In this document: piece after piece, positions 58,129 through 63,877 of the stretch | Numbering within the stretch: position 1 is the stretch's first letter | How the letters are laid out: each line of letters opens with the position of its first letter | Assembly: GCA_000146465.1 (NCBI GenBank) | Contig: CP001942.1 | DNA length: 64,000 nt | Strand: one strand, 5' to 3' | The notes under the pieces: model-generated | The model's input: only the letters and a program-made list of their open reading frames with translations | Told to the model about the DNA's origin: nothing | Database searches by the model: none | Program-made: the position numbers and the translations under genes

Positions 58129-58761
58129 TTAATCTATCTGGTCTTTATTCTGTAAAGAGGGAACATACATTTCTTCCAGTTTTTTTTTCCCGATTTCTTC
58201 ATGGTAGAATTCCCCATTGCGGAATCCAAGCCTTATAGTATGTACAAAGGTTTTCTTGGAGTAAACAGAATTCCGCAACAGTCTTACTGTTACAACGTCG
58301 TCATGTCTCTTTATCACTTTAGTTGCAATTGCCCTTGAGACCACACGTTTCTGGCCGTAGTAGAAGACAGGTGTCCCATCTGCCTGCTTGATGATGTTGT
58401 GGCCTTCATCTAGAAGAAAGTAGCCTTTGTAGTTGTTGGACAGCATTGACTTGTATTTACCATCAACAGTTAGAACTCTCTTTCCCAACTCATACTTTTT
58501 TTTATCCATGAGAAACACCTTCTTGAACTTCTGTCTTGCCCTCTTTCCCGGAAAATCCTTTCCATGGAACATCATGAAACTACAAGCAGCGATATCGATA
58601 TACTTTTGCTTGATCCGGTTCTTGGTATTTGGATTCGTTGTCTTTTTTTCGGAGCTCATGATTCTGCAGGCCAGGATAATGATGGGTTCCATAAAGAGCA
58701 TCAGTTTTAGACCCTTTAGAGACCATGGAAAATGAAGTCTCACAAGCCTGGCCATATCCAA
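58129..58761 (-). CDS. Hypothetical basic protein. The true start is probably the internal Met at ~58659, which would avoid a 5' overlap with TFB2.
   Basis: ORF only. Confidence 0.4.
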   Translation of the reverse strand: MDMARLVRLHFPWSLKGLKLMLFMEPIIILACRIMSSEKKTTNPNTKNRIKQKYIDIAACSFMMFHGKDFPGKRARQKFKKVFLMDKKKYELGKRVLTVDGKYKSMLSNNYKGYFLLDEGHNIIKQADGTPVFYYGQKRVVSRAIATKVIKRHDDVVTVRLLRNSVYSKKTFVHTIRLGFRNGEFYHEEIGKKKLEEMYVPSLQNKDQID

Positions 58762-59969
58762 TAGACATCATAGAGTATTTTGGTATGCTTCCCGAACACT
58801 CGAAGAAGCGGCTGTATAGGGCTCCTGTGTTTGCAGTATCTTTCCTGAAGATCTTTGACGAAAAGACCACACGATTTATCTTTGATCTATTGCTGAAATC
58901 CCACTCCATAAGTTCTCTGAGAGAGATCAAAGGGATTAAGGAAGTCCTGAAAACACTACTGAGGATCCAGATGATCGAGAAAAAAGGAGATAACATTTAC
59001 TTAGAGGAAGACTTCAGGAGATCGCTGATGGAAGGGTTTTGCATGCTTACGATAGAAAAGCACTATAGAAGTGCAGGAGAAGAGACGGAAACCGATGAAG
59101 AGGAGAGTAATAGAAGGTTTGAAACTATTCTAAGGTCGATTGTCAATAAGGAGAGCAAGATCAGGGAATTTGGAGTCAGGGAAGTCCTTATGTTTGGAGG
59201 GCTCCTTGGCAGGGATGAGAACATCACAAACAGAGGGTTTGAATTTCTTCTCAAAACAAAGAAAGAGCAACTGTGGTGTCTTGTGTTACTGTCCTTGAAG
59301 TATTTTCTCAAATCTGTGGAGGAAGAAGTTTCCACGTTGGAAGCTATATTTGAGCTGAGTACAAAGAATGTTGGAACAGTATACCGCCATTCCAGTTCAA
59401 TGGATAAAAGACTGCTCAAATATCTGGAGGTACTGGGGATCTTGAAGCTCTATGGAGAAAACCTTGCGATTAGGAGGTCCTTTGTACAGCTGTTTGAGGC
59501 GTCTGAACGCAACAGAAGAGAGTTTATAATTGTGGAAACAAACAACAAGATATATGCATACACAAATTCCGAGTATGAAAAGTCTGTGATACATCTGTTC
59601 TGCAACGTGTCTTTCAACCTTCCTAACCTTACAAAGGGAAGTATAACAGAGGAGAGTGTGAATGCTGCATTTGACAAAGGAATAACAGGAAGACAAATAA
59701 TACACTTTCTGGAGGCAAGTTCCAAACCCGGAAGCCTTCCTCCGGCGATCATCAACCAGATAATTATATGGGAGTCCAAGAGAAACAGGATCTTCATGGC
59801 TCCTGGATATCTTTACTCGAACTTCCTGAATTTGTCTGACTATCAGAAGGTACTGGAGTTCTGCAGCGAAAGAAACTATCTTATAGAATCCGACATCGAC
59901 AGGAGGATGATAGTTGTGAATCCAAAAGGTCATGTGTTTGTTAAGGAGTTCATAAAGACAATACTCTAA
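58725..59969 (+). CDS. TFB2: TFIIH subunit p52/Tfb2.
   Basis: 414 aa. The N-terminal IEYFGMLPEHSKKRLYRAPVFAVSF matches the Tfb2 pattern (LLEFL..LP...LDRLY..P...LAVFR). The C-terminal PPAIINQIIIWESKRNR matches the p52 C-terminal PPTVVDQIRLWE. Confidence 0.7.
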   Translation: MENEVSQAWPYPIDIIEYFGMLPEHSKKRLYRAPVFAVSFLKIFDEKTTRFIFDLLLKSHSISSLREIKGIKEVLKTLLRIQMIEKKGDNIYLEEDFRRSLMEGFCMLTIEKHYRSAGEETETDEEESNRRFETILRSIVNKESKIREFGVREVLMFGGLLGRDENITNRGFEFLLKTKKEQLWCLVLLSLKYFLKSVEEEVSTLEAIFELSTKNVGTVYRHSSSMDKRLLKYLEVLGILKLYGENLAIRRSFVQLFEASERNRREFIIVETNNKIYAYTNSEYEKSVIHLFCNVSFNLPNLTKGSITEESVNAAFDKGITGRQIIHFLEASSKPGSLPPAIINQIIIWESKRNRIFMAPGYLYSNFLNLSDYQKVLEFCSERNYLIESDIDRRMIVVNPKGHVFVKEFIKTIL

Positions 59970-60031: not shown

Positions 60032-60538
60032 TTATTTTATGGAATTTATGAACTCCTTTACATCGAATGATATCTTACACCCGGCACCTGCAAGGATTAT
60101 GGCTTCTCTGTAAGGTACCTTGTCGTTTACATAAAATACACCTCTGTTTCCTAGCAAGGGACGGTATCTTCCTTCCAAGGCCCTAGAGTCGATGACCAGA
60201 GATCTTGTCTTGTGCAGCCCAGCATTTGTTTTGATTGCAAAGTAATCATCTTCCCTCAATATTTCCACGACTTCCTCTTCCAGAACTTCAATTCCCATGT
60301 TTCTGGCCTGGCTCTCTACTAAAGAAATAAACTCCTTGGGTTCCTGGACGTCCTTAACGCCTACAACATTTTCTGCTCCAGAAAAGTCCATCTCCTCTTC
60401 CCCGGGCACTTTGAGTATAAGTGGAGACAGATTGGCTGTGTGGATATATATTCCACACATGTAGGTGCCTGGGCCTTGGCCTATGATAATGACACTCCTC
60501 ATTCCCAGGGGATTAAAAATTTTGTAAATCCCCTCCAA
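60032..60538 (-). CDS. Thioredoxin-reductase-like FAD-domain protein with an internal deletion (the NADPH domain and redox CxxC are absent).
   Basis: 168 aa. RSVIIIGQGPGTYMCGIYIHTANLSPLILK aligns with TrxR [29 protein letters not shown]. The C-terminal GVFYVNDKVPYREAIILAGAGC aligns with the TrxR C-terminal [24 protein letters not shown]. The ~150 residues that carry CAVC and the NADPH GxGxxA are missing. Confidence 0.55.
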   Translation of the reverse strand: MEGIYKIFNPLGMRSVIIIGQGPGTYMCGIYIHTANLSPLILKVPGEEEMDFSGAENVVGVKDVQEPKEFISLVESQARNMGIEVLEEEVVEILREDDYFAIKTNAGLHKTRSLVIDSRALEGRYRPLLGNRGVFYVNDKVPYREAIILAGAGCKISFDVKEFINSIK

Positions 60539-60648: not shown

Positions 60649-61092
60649 ATGGTAGGGAAAGCCCTAATGTTTACCAACACAGATGATATAAAGCTGTCTG
60701 ATATACTATTTGGGAGTGATGTCGAGACCATCCGTTGCGAAAAAGCCTCTGGAAGAAAGGAGGACGAGAAAAACATATGGAAGAGGAATGTCAAGCACTA
60801 CAAGATCCTCTCGATCGATCAAATATCTGCGCTAGAGGACTTCTTCATTAGTAGGCAGCAGCCTATAACAAAAACTAATATAAAACATGCATCAAAGATT
60901 CTAAGGATCCCCTACCAACGATCTGTAAACTATCTCTATAACAAATACAAGAGGGCCCAGGAGAGTGCCGATGATTTCTATCAAAAGTGCATTCACGAGT
61001 TTGGCTTGATAATGCAGAATATAGACAAGTCCTGGGACTCGTACCTCCGAGGATGCCGGGTGTACAACACACCTCGAGACAACAGGAATTAA
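60649..61092 (+). CDS. Hypothetical protein with a divergent homeodomain-like segment.
   Basis: 147 aa. YKILSIDQISALEDFFISRQQPITKTNIKHASKILRIPYQRSVNYLYNKYKRAQ has homeodomain spacing (L..LE.FF...Q.P......I...L.I....V...Y.N...R). Confidence 0.45.
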   Translation: MVGKALMFTNTDDIKLSDILFGSDVETIRCEKASGRKEDEKNIWKRNVKHYKILSIDQISALEDFFISRQQPITKTNIKHASKILRIPYQRSVNYLYNKYKRAQESADDFYQKCIHEFGLIMQNIDKSWDSYLRGCRVYNTPRDNRN

Positions 61093-61187: not shown

Positions 61188-62492
61188 ATGAAGGATGTCT
61201 CTGAGATCATGAAGAAGCAGGCCACCCTCAATATCGGGACTATTGGGCATGTTGCACATGGCAAGTCCACTATTGTAAAGGCAATAAGCGGAATAAGCAC
61301 AATAAAGTTCAAGGCTGAACTTGAACGTAACATTACGATAAAGTTAGGGTATGCCAATGCCAAGATATACAAGTGTGACTCCAAATGCATCAGACCAAAC
61401 TGCTACCAGTCTTTTGGGAGTTCAAGCCCGGACCAGCTTCCTTGCAAGAAGTGTGGAGGCACCTTGAACCTGGTAAGGCATGTGTCTTTTGTGGACTGTC
61501 CTGGGCACGATGTTCTGATGGCCACGATGCTGAATGGAACAGCCATAATGGACTCAGTACTGCTTCTGATAGCAGCCAACGAACCCTGTCCACAGCCCCA
61601 GACCACTGAACATCTGTTTGCAGTGGAGATTATGAATCTCAAAAAGGTTCTTGTTGTACAGAATAAGATCGACCTTGTCTCGAGGGAGCAGGCACTGGAG
61701 CAGCATGATCAAATCCAGAAGTTCCTGAAGACTTCGAATGTTTCGGGGCCTGTAGTTCCAACGGCAGCCCAACTTGGAGTCAACATCCCAGCACTTCTGG
61801 ACTTCATTGTCAATTACATCCCAGAACCATCAAGGGACTCTGCAGCACATCCAAAGATGGTTGTCATCAGAAGTTTTGATGTCAACAGGCCTGGAACCAA
61901 GGTGAGTGATATGTCTGGAGGGGTGATTGGGGGAAGTCTTGTCACAGGAATGCTAAAGGTTGGAGACAAAATTGAGATAAGACCGGGACTGGTGACAAAG
62001 AAAAATAACAAGTTTGTATGCCGGCCTTTTGTCTCTGAGATTGTTTCTTTGAAAGCAGAAAACACAGATCTTGATGAAGCATATCCTGGAGGACTAATAG
62101 GTGTTGGAACAACAATGGATCCCTCGTTTTGTAAGGCAGACAAGCTGGTTGGGCAGGTGATGGGGAAGTTTGGGTTTCTCCCCTCAATATTCCACAGGAT
62201 AACTGTCGAGTACAGTCTTTTCCCAAAAACGACAGTCCAAGGGAACTTCAAGCTGAAGGAGGGAGAGCATGTGCTGTTGAACATAGGAAGCACAACAACA
62301 GGGAGTGTGATAGGGAAGATCGGAGAGACCATTGGGGAATTTGATCTTGTGAAGCCTGCATGCTGTGAGATTGGAGAAAGAATAGCGATATCAAGGAAGA
62401 TTAACAACCACTGGAGACTGATAGGCCACGGGGAGATCAAGAGTGGGATATGTGTTGAGCCGGAGTACAGTGTCGAAATAGATTCCAAGTAA
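61188..62492 (+). CDS. GCD11: Translation initiation factor eIF2 gamma subunit.
   Basis: 434 aa. The G motifs are IGTIGHVAHGKST, DCPGHD and NKID. The zinc ribbon is CxxC...CxxC (CDSKCIRPNCYQ...CKKCGG). It is collinear with eIF2-gamma. Confidence 0.9.
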   Translation: MKDVSEIMKKQATLNIGTIGHVAHGKSTIVKAISGISTIKFKAELERNITIKLGYANAKIYKCDSKCIRPNCYQSFGSSSPDQLPCKKCGGTLNLVRHVSFVDCPGHDVLMATMLNGTAIMDSVLLLIAANEPCPQPQTTEHLFAVEIMNLKKVLVVQNKIDLVSREQALEQHDQIQKFLKTSNVSGPVVPTAAQLGVNIPALLDFIVNYIPEPSRDSAAHPKMVVIRSFDVNRPGTKVSDMSGGVIGGSLVTGMLKVGDKIEIRPGLVTKKNNKFVCRPFVSEIVSLKAENTDLDEAYPGGLIGVGTTMDPSFCKADKLVGQVMGKFGFLPSIFHRITVEYSLFPKTTVQGNFKLKEGEHVLLNIGSTTTGSVIGKIGETIGEFDLVKPACCEIGERIAISRKINNHWRLIGHGEIKSGICVEPEYSVEIDSK

Positions 62493-62572: not shown

Positions 62573-63376
62573 TCACCTCTGAAGACATATCCGGTCCCCT
62601 GACCTGTCGAATACAATTATCCCCTTACTCAGAAGCCCATAAACTATTCTCAAGAGTGTTGCTCTGTCCATCCCCACCATCTTTCCTAGACGATCTAACT
62701 CAATGGATTCTTCAAGCACCAGATGCTTACAAATAATCTTGTTGTGAGAATCTGACAAATTCTCAATCTCCTCAATCACAAGCATCTTCTCGATGGTGCA
62801 AGAGTATTCTCTGCTTTCCTTAATATATGAAAGGGAACTGATGACATCCTCATCCGGAAGGCTTCCTTCCTCTAAAAACCTCCAAACCTTGGAAAGGAGG
62901 CTTGCATGCAGCTTCTCATATTCCATGTCATTAAACATCTTCCGAAGATCTTCAAGCCTGCTCTTCAGGTCTTCTATATCGTATTGGCTATATCTCTTCA
63001 TTTCCTCGTATTTCTGCTTCATGTTGGCTAGTTCCACTTCCAGGATGTCGCATTCCTTTTCATACTCATTGCAGAGAGATATCTTCTCTTGTTTTTTTCT
63101 CAGCTCCTCTAGCTCTGAGGAAATCTCCAATCCATATCTATCATACTCGATGCTCAGGTTGTTTAAAACATCTATCAAGGCCATGTGATCTTCAAGCATC
63201 CTTTCTTCAATTGTAGGAAACTCCATTTCTCTATACATTGTGTTTAGGTCGTCTAGTGATCTTATGGATGCTGTCCTGGGGATTTCCAGCCCCGATACTG
63301 TTTCCAGAGAAGGAAATCTCCTTGGCTCTGTGGTAGTTATTGAAGCCTCCCTTATTATGTCCTCTGGACTGCACAT
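62573..63376 (-). CDS. Hypothetical coiled-coil protein with a C-terminal winged-helix-like segment.
   Basis: 267 aa. The C-terminal motif is LGKMVGMDRATLLRIVYGLLSKGIIVFDRSGD. Confidence 0.45.
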   Translation of the reverse strand: MCSPEDIIREASITTTEPRRFPSLETVSGLEIPRTASIRSLDDLNTMYREMEFPTIEERMLEDHMALIDVLNNLSIEYDRYGLEISSELEELRKKQEKISLCNEYEKECDILEVELANMKQKYEEMKRYSQYDIEDLKSRLEDLRKMFNDMEYEKLHASLLSKVWRFLEEGSLPDEDVISSLSYIKESREYSCTIEKMLVIEEIENLSDSHNKIICKHLVLEESIELDRLGKMVGMDRATLLRIVYGLLSKGIIVFDRSGDRICLQR

Positions 63377-63433: not shown

Positions 63434-63877
63434 ATGCCTTATGGCCAAGAAGACATTGGGATTCCAAGGGATGGCGAGGCTTTCATGAGATACCGAGAAA
63501 AAAGAATCCAAGAGCTAAGCGGAAATGTAGAGGACATCACATCCGAGAGGGAGTTGATAGAGAAGACCAAGTCACTGAAAATGATAGTCCATTTCTACAA
63601 GCCAGAGTTTGGCCGCTGCCAGACGATGGACAAGAGGGTAAGAGAGATAAAGAATTGCTTTCCAGAAATTAGATTCTATAGAGTAAATGCCGAGATATGT
63701 CCGGTTGTAACAAGAAAGCTTGAGATAAGAGTTTTGCCATTTCTGGGATTCTTCAAGGACGGATACTTTGTGGACCAGGTTGTTGGCTTTGAGAAGCTTG
63801 GAGATAATCTGGACCTGGAAGCTCTTAAGAAAAGGATTTCAGACAGCAACATATTTAAACCTATATCCAGCATATGA
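63434..63877 (+). CDS. Phosducin-like / thioredoxin-domain-containing protein 9 (Plp1-like).
   Basis: 147 aa. It has a thioredoxin-fold pattern without CxxC (MIVHFYKPEFGRCQTMDKRV...FYRVNAEICPVVTRKLEIRVLPFLGFFKDGYFVDQVVGFEKLG), typical of phosducin-like proteins. Confidence 0.6.
   Translation: MPYGQEDIGIPRDGEAFMRYREKRIQELSGNVEDITSERELIEKTKSLKMIVHFYKPEFGRCQTMDKRVREIKNCFPEIRFYRVNAEICPVVTRKLEIRVLPFLGFFKDGYFVDQVVGFEKLGDNLDLEALKKRISDSNIFKPISSI

Follow-up and report, generated by a model that had tools for sequence, protein, structure and literature searches.

A conserved, domain-deleted and probably non-catalytic paralogue of thioredoxin reductase in Encephalitozoon intestinalis and other Microsporidia

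The 64,000-nucleotide stretch of DNA analyzed here (the window; GenBank assembly GCA_000146465.1, contig CP001942.1) carries a short gene whose 156-residue product shows 100% identity to a protein of Encephalitozoon intestinalis ATCC 50506 annotated as "thioredoxin reductase", and the locus raises the question of whether so small a protein can be that enzyme, is the remnant of one, or has been put to another use. We find that this open reading frame is the orthologue, in E. intestinalis, of an ancient protein family of 141-208 residues (here called mini-TrxR) that occurs across Microsporidia and is maintained by selection, and that the family is derived from low-molecular-weight thioredoxin reductase (TrxR) by excision of the whole NADPH (reduced nicotinamide adenine dinucleotide phosphate) domain with its CAxC centre. 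The E. intestinalis protein is a conserved, domain-deleted and probably non-catalytic TrxR paralogue of Microsporidia.

A first-pass annotation, made from the DNA letters, had placed an intact, in-frame but internally deleted TrxR-like gene at 60032-60538. The reading frame is indeed continuous and intact on the minus strand, and its 3' end stands as given; the 5' end lay 36 nt too far out, the underlying list of open reading frames having been compiled under bacterial rules, which set the start at a TTG at 60538 and gave 168 residues. We place the true start at the ATG at 60500-60502 because of the complete identity to the annotated protein, because the orthologues of 156-159 residues all begin M-R/K at the same Met in the alignment, and because a conserved CCC motif lies upstream. 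The product so defined has the N-terminus MRSVIIIGQGPGT... (MRSVIIIGQGPGTYMCGIY...). The CCC motif occurs no more than ~10 nt 5' of the ATG in seven of seven species (E. intestinalis, E. cuniculi, E. romaleae, E. hellem, both Ordospora and N. ceranae), and it is a putative instance of the microsporidian CCC-like transcription signal reported by Peyretaillade et al. (2009). A AAAATTTT element is found 5' of the CCC motif in E. intestinalis and E. hellem. The gene and its upstream element are as follows.

60032-60502, minus strand: complete mini-TrxR coding sequence, 156 codons and a TAA stop (60032-60034), with the ATG at 60500-60502; from the sequence and open reading frame, the annotated protein and the orthologues.
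60503-60523, minus strand: AT-rich element and CCC motif abutting the start codon (AAAATTTTTAATCCCCTGGGA); from cross-species comparison of upstream regions.

What this frame encodes is a flavin adenine dinucleotide (FAD) domain fold assembled from N- and C-terminal segments, with residues 1-~118 corresponding to low-molecular-weight TrxR 1-~121 and residues 120-156 to ~280-316. A phmmer search against all PDB sequences returned thioredoxin reductases only (best E 6e-8), aligned in two stretches (query 3-106/118 to TrxR ~5-122, query 120-154 to TrxR ~270-314), and a profile of 31 family members matched TrxR 6bwt at E 1.7e-23, likewise in two stretches (9-137 and 273-316). The NCBIfam model TIGR01292 also matches (E 2.5e-11), locally, with query residues 3-104 on profile positions 2-106. 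These comparisons agree with the first-pass proposal that ~110 N-terminal and ~35 C-terminal residues represent the two segments of the TrxR FAD domain, and the GxGxxG/A-type dinucleotide fold and C-terminal AGAGC that it named are seen as GQGPGT (residues 8-13) and AGAGC (residues 138-142). Agreement does not extend to every model: the TIGR01292 score of 42.9 bits stays far below the curated equivalog cut-off of 343.45, and PF07992 (Pyr_redox_2), through which the assignment was to be checked, scores 16.5 bits (E 0.006), below its gathering threshold of 26.1, and is detected at E <= 0.01 in just 15 of the 31 family members. The parts of the protein lie on the DNA as follows.

60185-60502, minus strand: residues 1-106, first TrxR FAD-domain segment, from beta1-alphaA-beta2 through the beta-meander to the ...SLVIDS strand, which stands in place of IIATGASA (the ATG motif); aligns with TrxR ~5-122.
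60464-60481, minus strand: GQGPGT, residues 8-13, a GxGxxG-like dinucleotide-fold motif with Thr at the sixth position; read from the sequence.
60143-60184, minus strand: residues 107-120 (RALEGRYRPLLGNR), a short helical linker at the place of the ~160-residue NADPH domain and return hairpin; from the alignment gap and a predicted helix at 107-117.
60035-60142, minus strand: residues 121-156, the last strand (GVFYVND, at the GD-motif position) and the C-terminal helix (REAIILAGAGCKISFDVKEFINSIK); aligns with TrxR ~273-316.

What has gone from between the two segments is the part that makes TrxR a reductase. In a joint alignment with the canonical enzymes the gap covers TrxR ~118-270, running from ...LVIDS (the IIATGASA position) to GVFYVND (the GLFACGD position), and the CAxC, GGGDSAMEE and HRRxxFR motifs are absent from the mini protein. 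The 156 residues hold no CxxC, the sole cysteines being C16 and C142, 126 residues apart. When full-length TrxRs were searched with tblastn against the whole window, the matches comprised the two segments only, with no remnant of an NADPH domain, and the flanking spacers of only 62 and 146 bp leave no room for hidden exons or domain remnants; the first-pass observation that the intervening CAVC/NADPH part is gone is thus upheld. Because the protein has neither a pyridine-nucleotide site nor a redox-active disulfide, the relay from NADPH to FAD to CxxC to thioredoxin is impossible, and the databases therefore misname it as "thioredoxin reductase".

The return hairpin is also lost in Encephalitozoon, where a helix of ~14 residues stands instead. 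In deeper members of the family (P0017, P0021, P0024, P0028 and P0032) the linker is longer and can be aligned with the return hairpin of TrxR leading from the NADPH domain to the FAD domain. This is in keeping with an ancestor from which the NADPH domain was cleanly excised and an Encephalitozoon lineage in which the protein was later trimmed further. Separately, one mini-TrxR member of 295 residues from a JGI metagenome (P0039) carries a low-complexity N-terminal extension of ~85 residues and, exactly at the former NADPH-domain junction, a Glu/Lys-rich repeat insertion of ~75 residues, so that the former domain boundary evidently tolerates large insertions.

To whom does this architecture belong? 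A profile of eight close orthologues (A1), searched against 1.84 billion representative proteins, matched 773 proteins at E <= 0.001. The top ~35 matches are nearly all 141-208 residues long and align end to end, with a single full-length TrxR among them (P0025). The same architecture is found in at least 39 sequence clusters, and all named members are Microsporidia, from 11 genera: Encephalitozoon (four species), Ordospora (two), Vairimorpha/Nosema (three, namely Vairimorpha bombi, V. ceranae with NCER_100933 of 176 residues, and Nosema granulosis), Hamiltosporidium (two, H. tvaerminnensis and H. magnivora), Glugoides intestinalis, Astathelohania contejeani, Pancytospora epiphaga, Nucleospora cyclopteri, Enteropsectra breve and Enterospora canceri. 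The E. intestinalis protein matches the family profile end to end and carries the invariant G8, Y19, Q65 and G141 together with C142 (38 of 39 members). Its close orthologues, of 156-159 residues, come from E. cuniculi, E. romaleae, E. hellem, Ordospora colligata, O. pajunii and two further relatives. This distribution bears directly on the concern, voiced at first pass, that a full-length TrxR gene had been shortened by a deletion collapsed in assembly, and on the related possibility of faulty annotation, for neither of which we found any support. The same short gene is present in seven independent assemblies, those of the orthologues just named, with the E. cuniculi, E. romaleae and E. hellem genes equally short; the reading frame is continuous, and the spacers on either side are too narrow to hold more. 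We consider the probability of such an artefact negligible.

A gene can be real and nevertheless be dying, and the first-pass annotation had offered a decaying paralogue as one of its two readings. The ratio of nonsynonymous to synonymous substitution rates (dN/dS, Nei-Gojobori) is 0.133 between E. romaleae and E. hellem and 0.134 between O. colligata and O. pajunii, two independent pairs, more distant pairs being saturated at synonymous sites. For six neighbouring genes in the same pairs the ratio is 0.04-0.13, so that mini-TrxR is the fastest-evolving gene of a seven-gene syntenic block, yet clearly under purifying selection. This relative speed and the eroded catalytic motifs are the observations that speak for a pseudogene whose frame is open by chance. 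They are outweighed by a dN/dS far below 1 in both pairs, by intact frames of the same architecture in the 39 or more clusters from distant microsporidian lineages, and by the conservation of both the locus and the upstream CCC motif. A further argument against decay is that the extremely compact genomes of Microsporidia lose their dead genes. We therefore reject this reading as extremely unlikely.

If the gene is maintained, the next question is what remains of the flavoprotein. In the predicted structure the remaining part folds as a stand-alone Rossmann core of the TrxR FAD-domain type. An AlphaFold2 model built with the eight close orthologues had a poor C-terminus (predicted local distance difference test, pLDDT, <50 for residues 120-156) and was superseded by one built on the 31-sequence family alignment, a compact Rossmann core with pLDDT 95.9 and a predicted template-modelling score of 0.90. 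Its elements are a strand at 2-8, a helix at 11-22, a strand at 27-31, a helix at 55-68 and a beta-meander with parallel strand at 72-105 (pLDDT >88 for each of these), followed in the C-terminal half by the linker helix at 107-117, a strand at 122-124 and a long C-terminal helix at 134-155.

Whether this core still holds FAD is a matter of individual positions. In TrxR, FAD is contacted by the GxGxxG motif, the GGQLTTT loop, a flavin Asn and the ATG, GD and RQA motifs, the GGQLTTT loop covering both the pyrophosphate and the flavin. A comparison of 39 mini proteins with 12 full-length TrxRs gave the following for the mini proteins.

First Gly of GxGxxG: present in all (39/39).
Pro of GxGxxG: present in 33/39.
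Second Gly of GxGxxG: present in 17/39; the other 22/39, E. hellem among them, have T, S or N.
GGQLTTT loop: missing from all (39/39).
Flavin-contact Asn after GGQLTTT: kept in 5/39; EN, EK, GN and KS within Encephalitozoon.
ATG motif: [VI][DE] instead in 33/39.
GD motif: Gly kept in 15/39; Asp at or beside the position in about a third, the alignment being ambiguous there.
RQA motif: xEA instead, with Gln changed to Glu in 35/39.

The most conserved positions are Gln65 of helix 2 (39/39), Gly141 (39/39) and Cys142 (38/39). Most positions that touch FAD in TrxR are lost or unconstrained, though constraint would be expected there if FAD were central to a shared function, and this pattern suggests, with moderate confidence, that the protein no longer carries out canonical flavin chemistry. 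As for the other first-pass reading, a "repurposed FAD-binding module", the conservation and selection described above support the repurposing, and the binding of FAD is doubtful, given the universal loss of the GGQLTTT loop and the rarity of the Asn and of the second Gly. Overall, the best explanation in our view, favoured but by no means assured, is a maintained family that serves as a non-catalytic, repurposed scaffold, i.e., a pseudoenzyme, and not as a working flavoenzyme.

How such a scaffold might work can be sketched from the same residues. Two newly fixed acidic residues (ATG to [VI][DE], RQA to xEA) lie at the old flavin site, where, speculatively, they may fill or re-purpose the empty flavin cleft. 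The protein would then be retained for a non-catalytic role through protein-protein contacts. The best-conserved elements of the family are the helix at 55-68, with the invariant Gln65, and the C-terminal helix, with the invariant Gly141 and the near-invariant Cys142. In low-molecular-weight TrxR, as in the E. coli structure, the helices matching these two form the homodimer interface, and for that reason the most specific guess is that mini-TrxR associates with itself or pairs with canonical TrxR, a tentative proposal to which we assign a rather low probability.

Set against the scaffold explanation is a competing one, in which mini-TrxR is a stand-alone mini-flavoprotein that still binds FAD or another dinucleotide, presents an exposed flavin face and acts as a small electron-transfer or oxidase module with some other partner or donor. 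By analogy, it would resemble those TrxR-like enzymes that gave up NADPH (FFTR, DTR and DDOR) and the Thermus protein TTHA0370. The FAD-domain fold, retained at very high model confidence, agrees with this alternative, as do G8, P11, Gly141 and Cys142 (39, 33, 39 and 38 of 39) and, among the Encephalitozoon and Ordospora proteins, the G-Q-G-P-[GA] found in six of eight sequences and an invariant Asp127. An essential FAD would nevertheless predict constraint at the FAD-contact positions, and there the GGQLTTT loop is gone from every member, the Asn varies even within Encephalitozoon, the second Gly is T, S or N in more than half, the ATG motif is lost and the Asp of GD is missing from most members. 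We regard a mini-flavoprotein as a genuine but lesser possibility.

Several points weigh against the scaffold explanation. The loss of FAD binding is predicted from motifs, and these are better preserved in E. intestinalis than in many other members: its protein keeps GQGPGT, E-N where D/E-N used to be, and N-D with Asp127 at the GD position, the GGQLTTT loop and ATG are absent and REA replaces RQA, so that residual dinucleotide binding is possible in this species. The first Gly, the Pro and the tightly packed residues between alphaA and the C-terminal helix are family-wide and would equally fit a protein that still binds the ADP portion of a dinucleotide. TTHA0370, the nearest neighbour in structure, is itself a stand-alone domain of a flavoprotein family. 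Moreover, the dimer-interface argument is drawn by analogy with the E. coli TrxR structure, the canonical TrxR partner in E. intestinalis is putative, and we found no experiment or expression data for the gene, the E. cuniculi RNA sequencing supplements covered as text having no thioredoxin entries.

Does mini-TrxR replace the canonical enzyme, or live beside it? Our protein homologue searches yielded only proteins within ~1.75-fold of the query length, so that the 156-residue query (matches of 156-201 residues) could not show a full-length TrxR, nor a long query the short relatives. A chimeric query of 292 residues recovered full-length TrxRs of N. ceranae (P0203), V. necatrix (P0204), Pancytospora (P0208) and several relatives; the canonical microsporidian enzymes have 308-346 residues and all catalytic motifs. 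Both genes are present in N. ceranae (P0203 with 308 residues, mini with 176) and in Pancytospora epiphaga (P0208 full length, P0023 mini). The N. ceranae TrxR used as a target for RNA interference, AAJ76_5800012528, corresponds to P0203 (CAVC, GGGDSAMEE, HRRNEFR) and is not the mini gene, since its primers and double-stranded RNA encode GGDSAMEE...HRRNEFR (PMC10199888 supplement). Trachipleistophora hominis has a TrxR of 317 residues, which Heinz et al. (2012, Table S19) report from its spores. Because the canonical TrxR coexists with it in at least Nosema/Vairimorpha and Pancytospora, mini-TrxR is an ancient paralogue and not a replacement. The split between the two is old and divergent, judging from the IYAARANL region, in which canonical microsporidian TrxRs have a two-residue deletion (IY--TKKFNP) and mini proteins keep the ancestral T-A-N-L, and from the lower scores of canonical microsporidian TrxRs against the mini profile (61-79 bits, versus 85-96 bits for many bacterial TrxRs).

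For Encephalitozoon the canonical gene has to be argued for less directly. No full-length TrxR named for Encephalitozoon or Ordospora was among the best 120 matches listed for the chimeric query, all above ~205 bits, nor among the 80 loci listed in a metagenome scan with microsporidian TrxR patterns (all <=47% identity), and a 96-residue N. ceranae TrxR fragment rebuilt from the published double-stranded RNA found short metagenomic fragments only. The first two of these results, taken with a glutathione reductase cluster to which neither E. cuniculi nor E. intestinalis contributes a member (0 in each; Heinz et al., 2012, Table S19), could suggest that Encephalitozoon has no canonical TrxR and that mini-TrxR is the surviving piece of a split, or the sole, thioredoxin-reducing system, acting in trans with another protein or a host-derived reductant. 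Neither of the two lists is evidence of absence. Moreover, in the data of Heinz et al. (2012, Table S19) N. ceranae, E. bieneusi, E. cuniculi and E. intestinalis each contribute a single protein to the TrxR cluster, and TrxR is listed as a core microsporidian family found in at least nine of 11 genomes (Nakjang et al., 2013, Table S4), counts that in both studies do not distinguish mini from full-length proteins. Nosema and Pancytospora own both genes, and tblastn found no stand-alone NADPH/CxxC domain in the window. We hold a split or sole system to be very unlikely, and on grounds of parsimony and physiology we expect with fair confidence that a canonical TrxR lies elsewhere in the E. intestinalis genome.

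A bolder proposal combines several of these elements. Mini-TrxR would be an essential subunit throughout the phylum, with no cofactor or an altered one, that joins either canonical TrxR or some other redox protein by way of the former FAD-domain dimer surface and thereby adds a regulatory layer to the thioredoxin system; in its radical version, Encephalitozoon would have neither canonical TrxR nor glutathione reductase and would have found a new route to host reducing power. We think this improbable.

The surroundings of the gene are also conserved. Its neighbours in the window are as follows.

58725-59969, plus strand: Tfb2, 62 bp beyond the mini-TrxR stop.
60649-61092, plus strand: conserved open reading frame of 147 residues, unannotated and without a Pfam match, 146 bp upstream of mini-TrxR.
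61188-62492: eIF2-gamma, following the 60649-61092 reading frame.
62573-63376, minus strand: predicted coiled-coil protein of 267 residues, with weak sub-threshold Pfam matches only.
63434-63877, plus strand: thioredoxin-fold protein of 147 residues (Pfam Thioredoxin E 1.6e-9, weak Phosducin).

The unannotated reading frame has counterparts of 141-142 residues at the same position in Encephalitozoon and Ordospora, with dN/dS of 0.05-0.11, and is on these grounds a real gene. The coiled-coil protein keeps its length and position in Encephalitozoon, Ordospora, Nosema and Pancytospora (dN/dS ~0.09-0.10). The order Tfb2, mini-TrxR, 141-residue gene, eIF2-gamma, 267-residue gene and thioredoxin-fold gene is the same as in the window in five of five loci (L001-L005). 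More widely, the mini gene sits between eIF2-gamma and Tfb2 in Encephalitozoon, Ordospora, Glugoides and Pancytospora (including L087 and L089), it adjoins Tfb2 in N. ceranae (L006), and it has a different gene context in Hamiltosporidium, whose genome is large. The thioredoxin-fold gene is linked to mini-TrxR in Encephalitozoon, Ordospora, N. ceranae (immediately upstream, L006) and Pancytospora (L089), and a functional link between the two was considered. We rejected it: the neighbour has FGRCQ where a redox thioredoxin has CxxC, its sequence looks like that of phosducin-like protein 3 (PhLP3)/TXNDC9, a chaperone cofactor rather than a redox partner, and the linkage is ordinary microsporidian synteny.

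Gene models for this family have been public since 2001 under a misleading name, and the label "thioredoxin reductase" has spread to E. cuniculi, E. intestinalis, E. romaleae, Ordospora, V. ceranae, Hamiltosporidium and Astathelohania, from where it feeds microsporidian metabolic reconstructions and lists of drug targets. TrxR has already been pursued as an RNA interference target in Nosema (PMC10199888), and telling the mini protein apart from true TrxR averts mis-targeting. A two-domain flavoenzyme that was cut down to one domain and then stayed under purifying selection throughout a phylum of parasites with extremely few genes implies an unrecognised function, and interest in it would rise sharply if Encephalitozoon proved to have no canonical TrxR, or if the mini protein proved to have a partner or regulatory role. 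The orphan structure of Thermus TTHA0370, in turn, gains a eukaryotic counterpart.

How, then, does mini-TrxR compare with systems already known? Our literature search found no paper on the family or on truncation of microsporidian TrxR, and no functional study of TTHA0370. Mini-TrxR descends from the low-molecular-weight TrxRs (TrxB/Trr1; TIGR01292; EC 1.8.1.9) and lacks all the catalytic features that define that family, having no NADPH domain, no GGQLTTT loop and, in Encephalitozoon, no return hairpin, with [VI][DE] for ATG and xEA for RQA. The canonical microsporidian TrxRs (N. ceranae P0203, V. necatrix P0204, Pancytospora P0208 and T. hominis orf_1656) share both its ancestral family and its genomes. 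The NADPH-independent enzymes, i.e., the ferredoxin-dependent FFTR (6gna), the Gloeobacter DTR (5j60) and the cyanobacterial DDOR (5jri), all retain FAD and a second domain, with the CxxC also present in FFTR and DTR, whereas mini-TrxR is without the whole second domain. The nearest parallel is TTHA0370, the "thioredoxin reductase-related protein" of Thermus thermophilus HB8 (PDB 2cvj/2ywl, 180 residues; a structural-genomics entry), which is also a single domain superposable on the FAD domain of TrxR. Against the family profile, 2cvj ranks 45th at E 1.3e-8, in its N-terminal part only, and TrxRs reach 1.7e-23; with ordinary TrxRs far closer in sequence, TTHA0370 is a convergent analogue and not a relative by descent, and an origin of mini-TrxR by transfer from a TTHA0370-like bacterial gene was rejected for the same reason. 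The best reading of the sequences compared is that domain loss happened twice independently, once in bacteria and once in Microsporidia. Taken together, these comparisons place the ancestry of mini-TrxR within a well-known enzyme family, and the protein works like nothing characterised.

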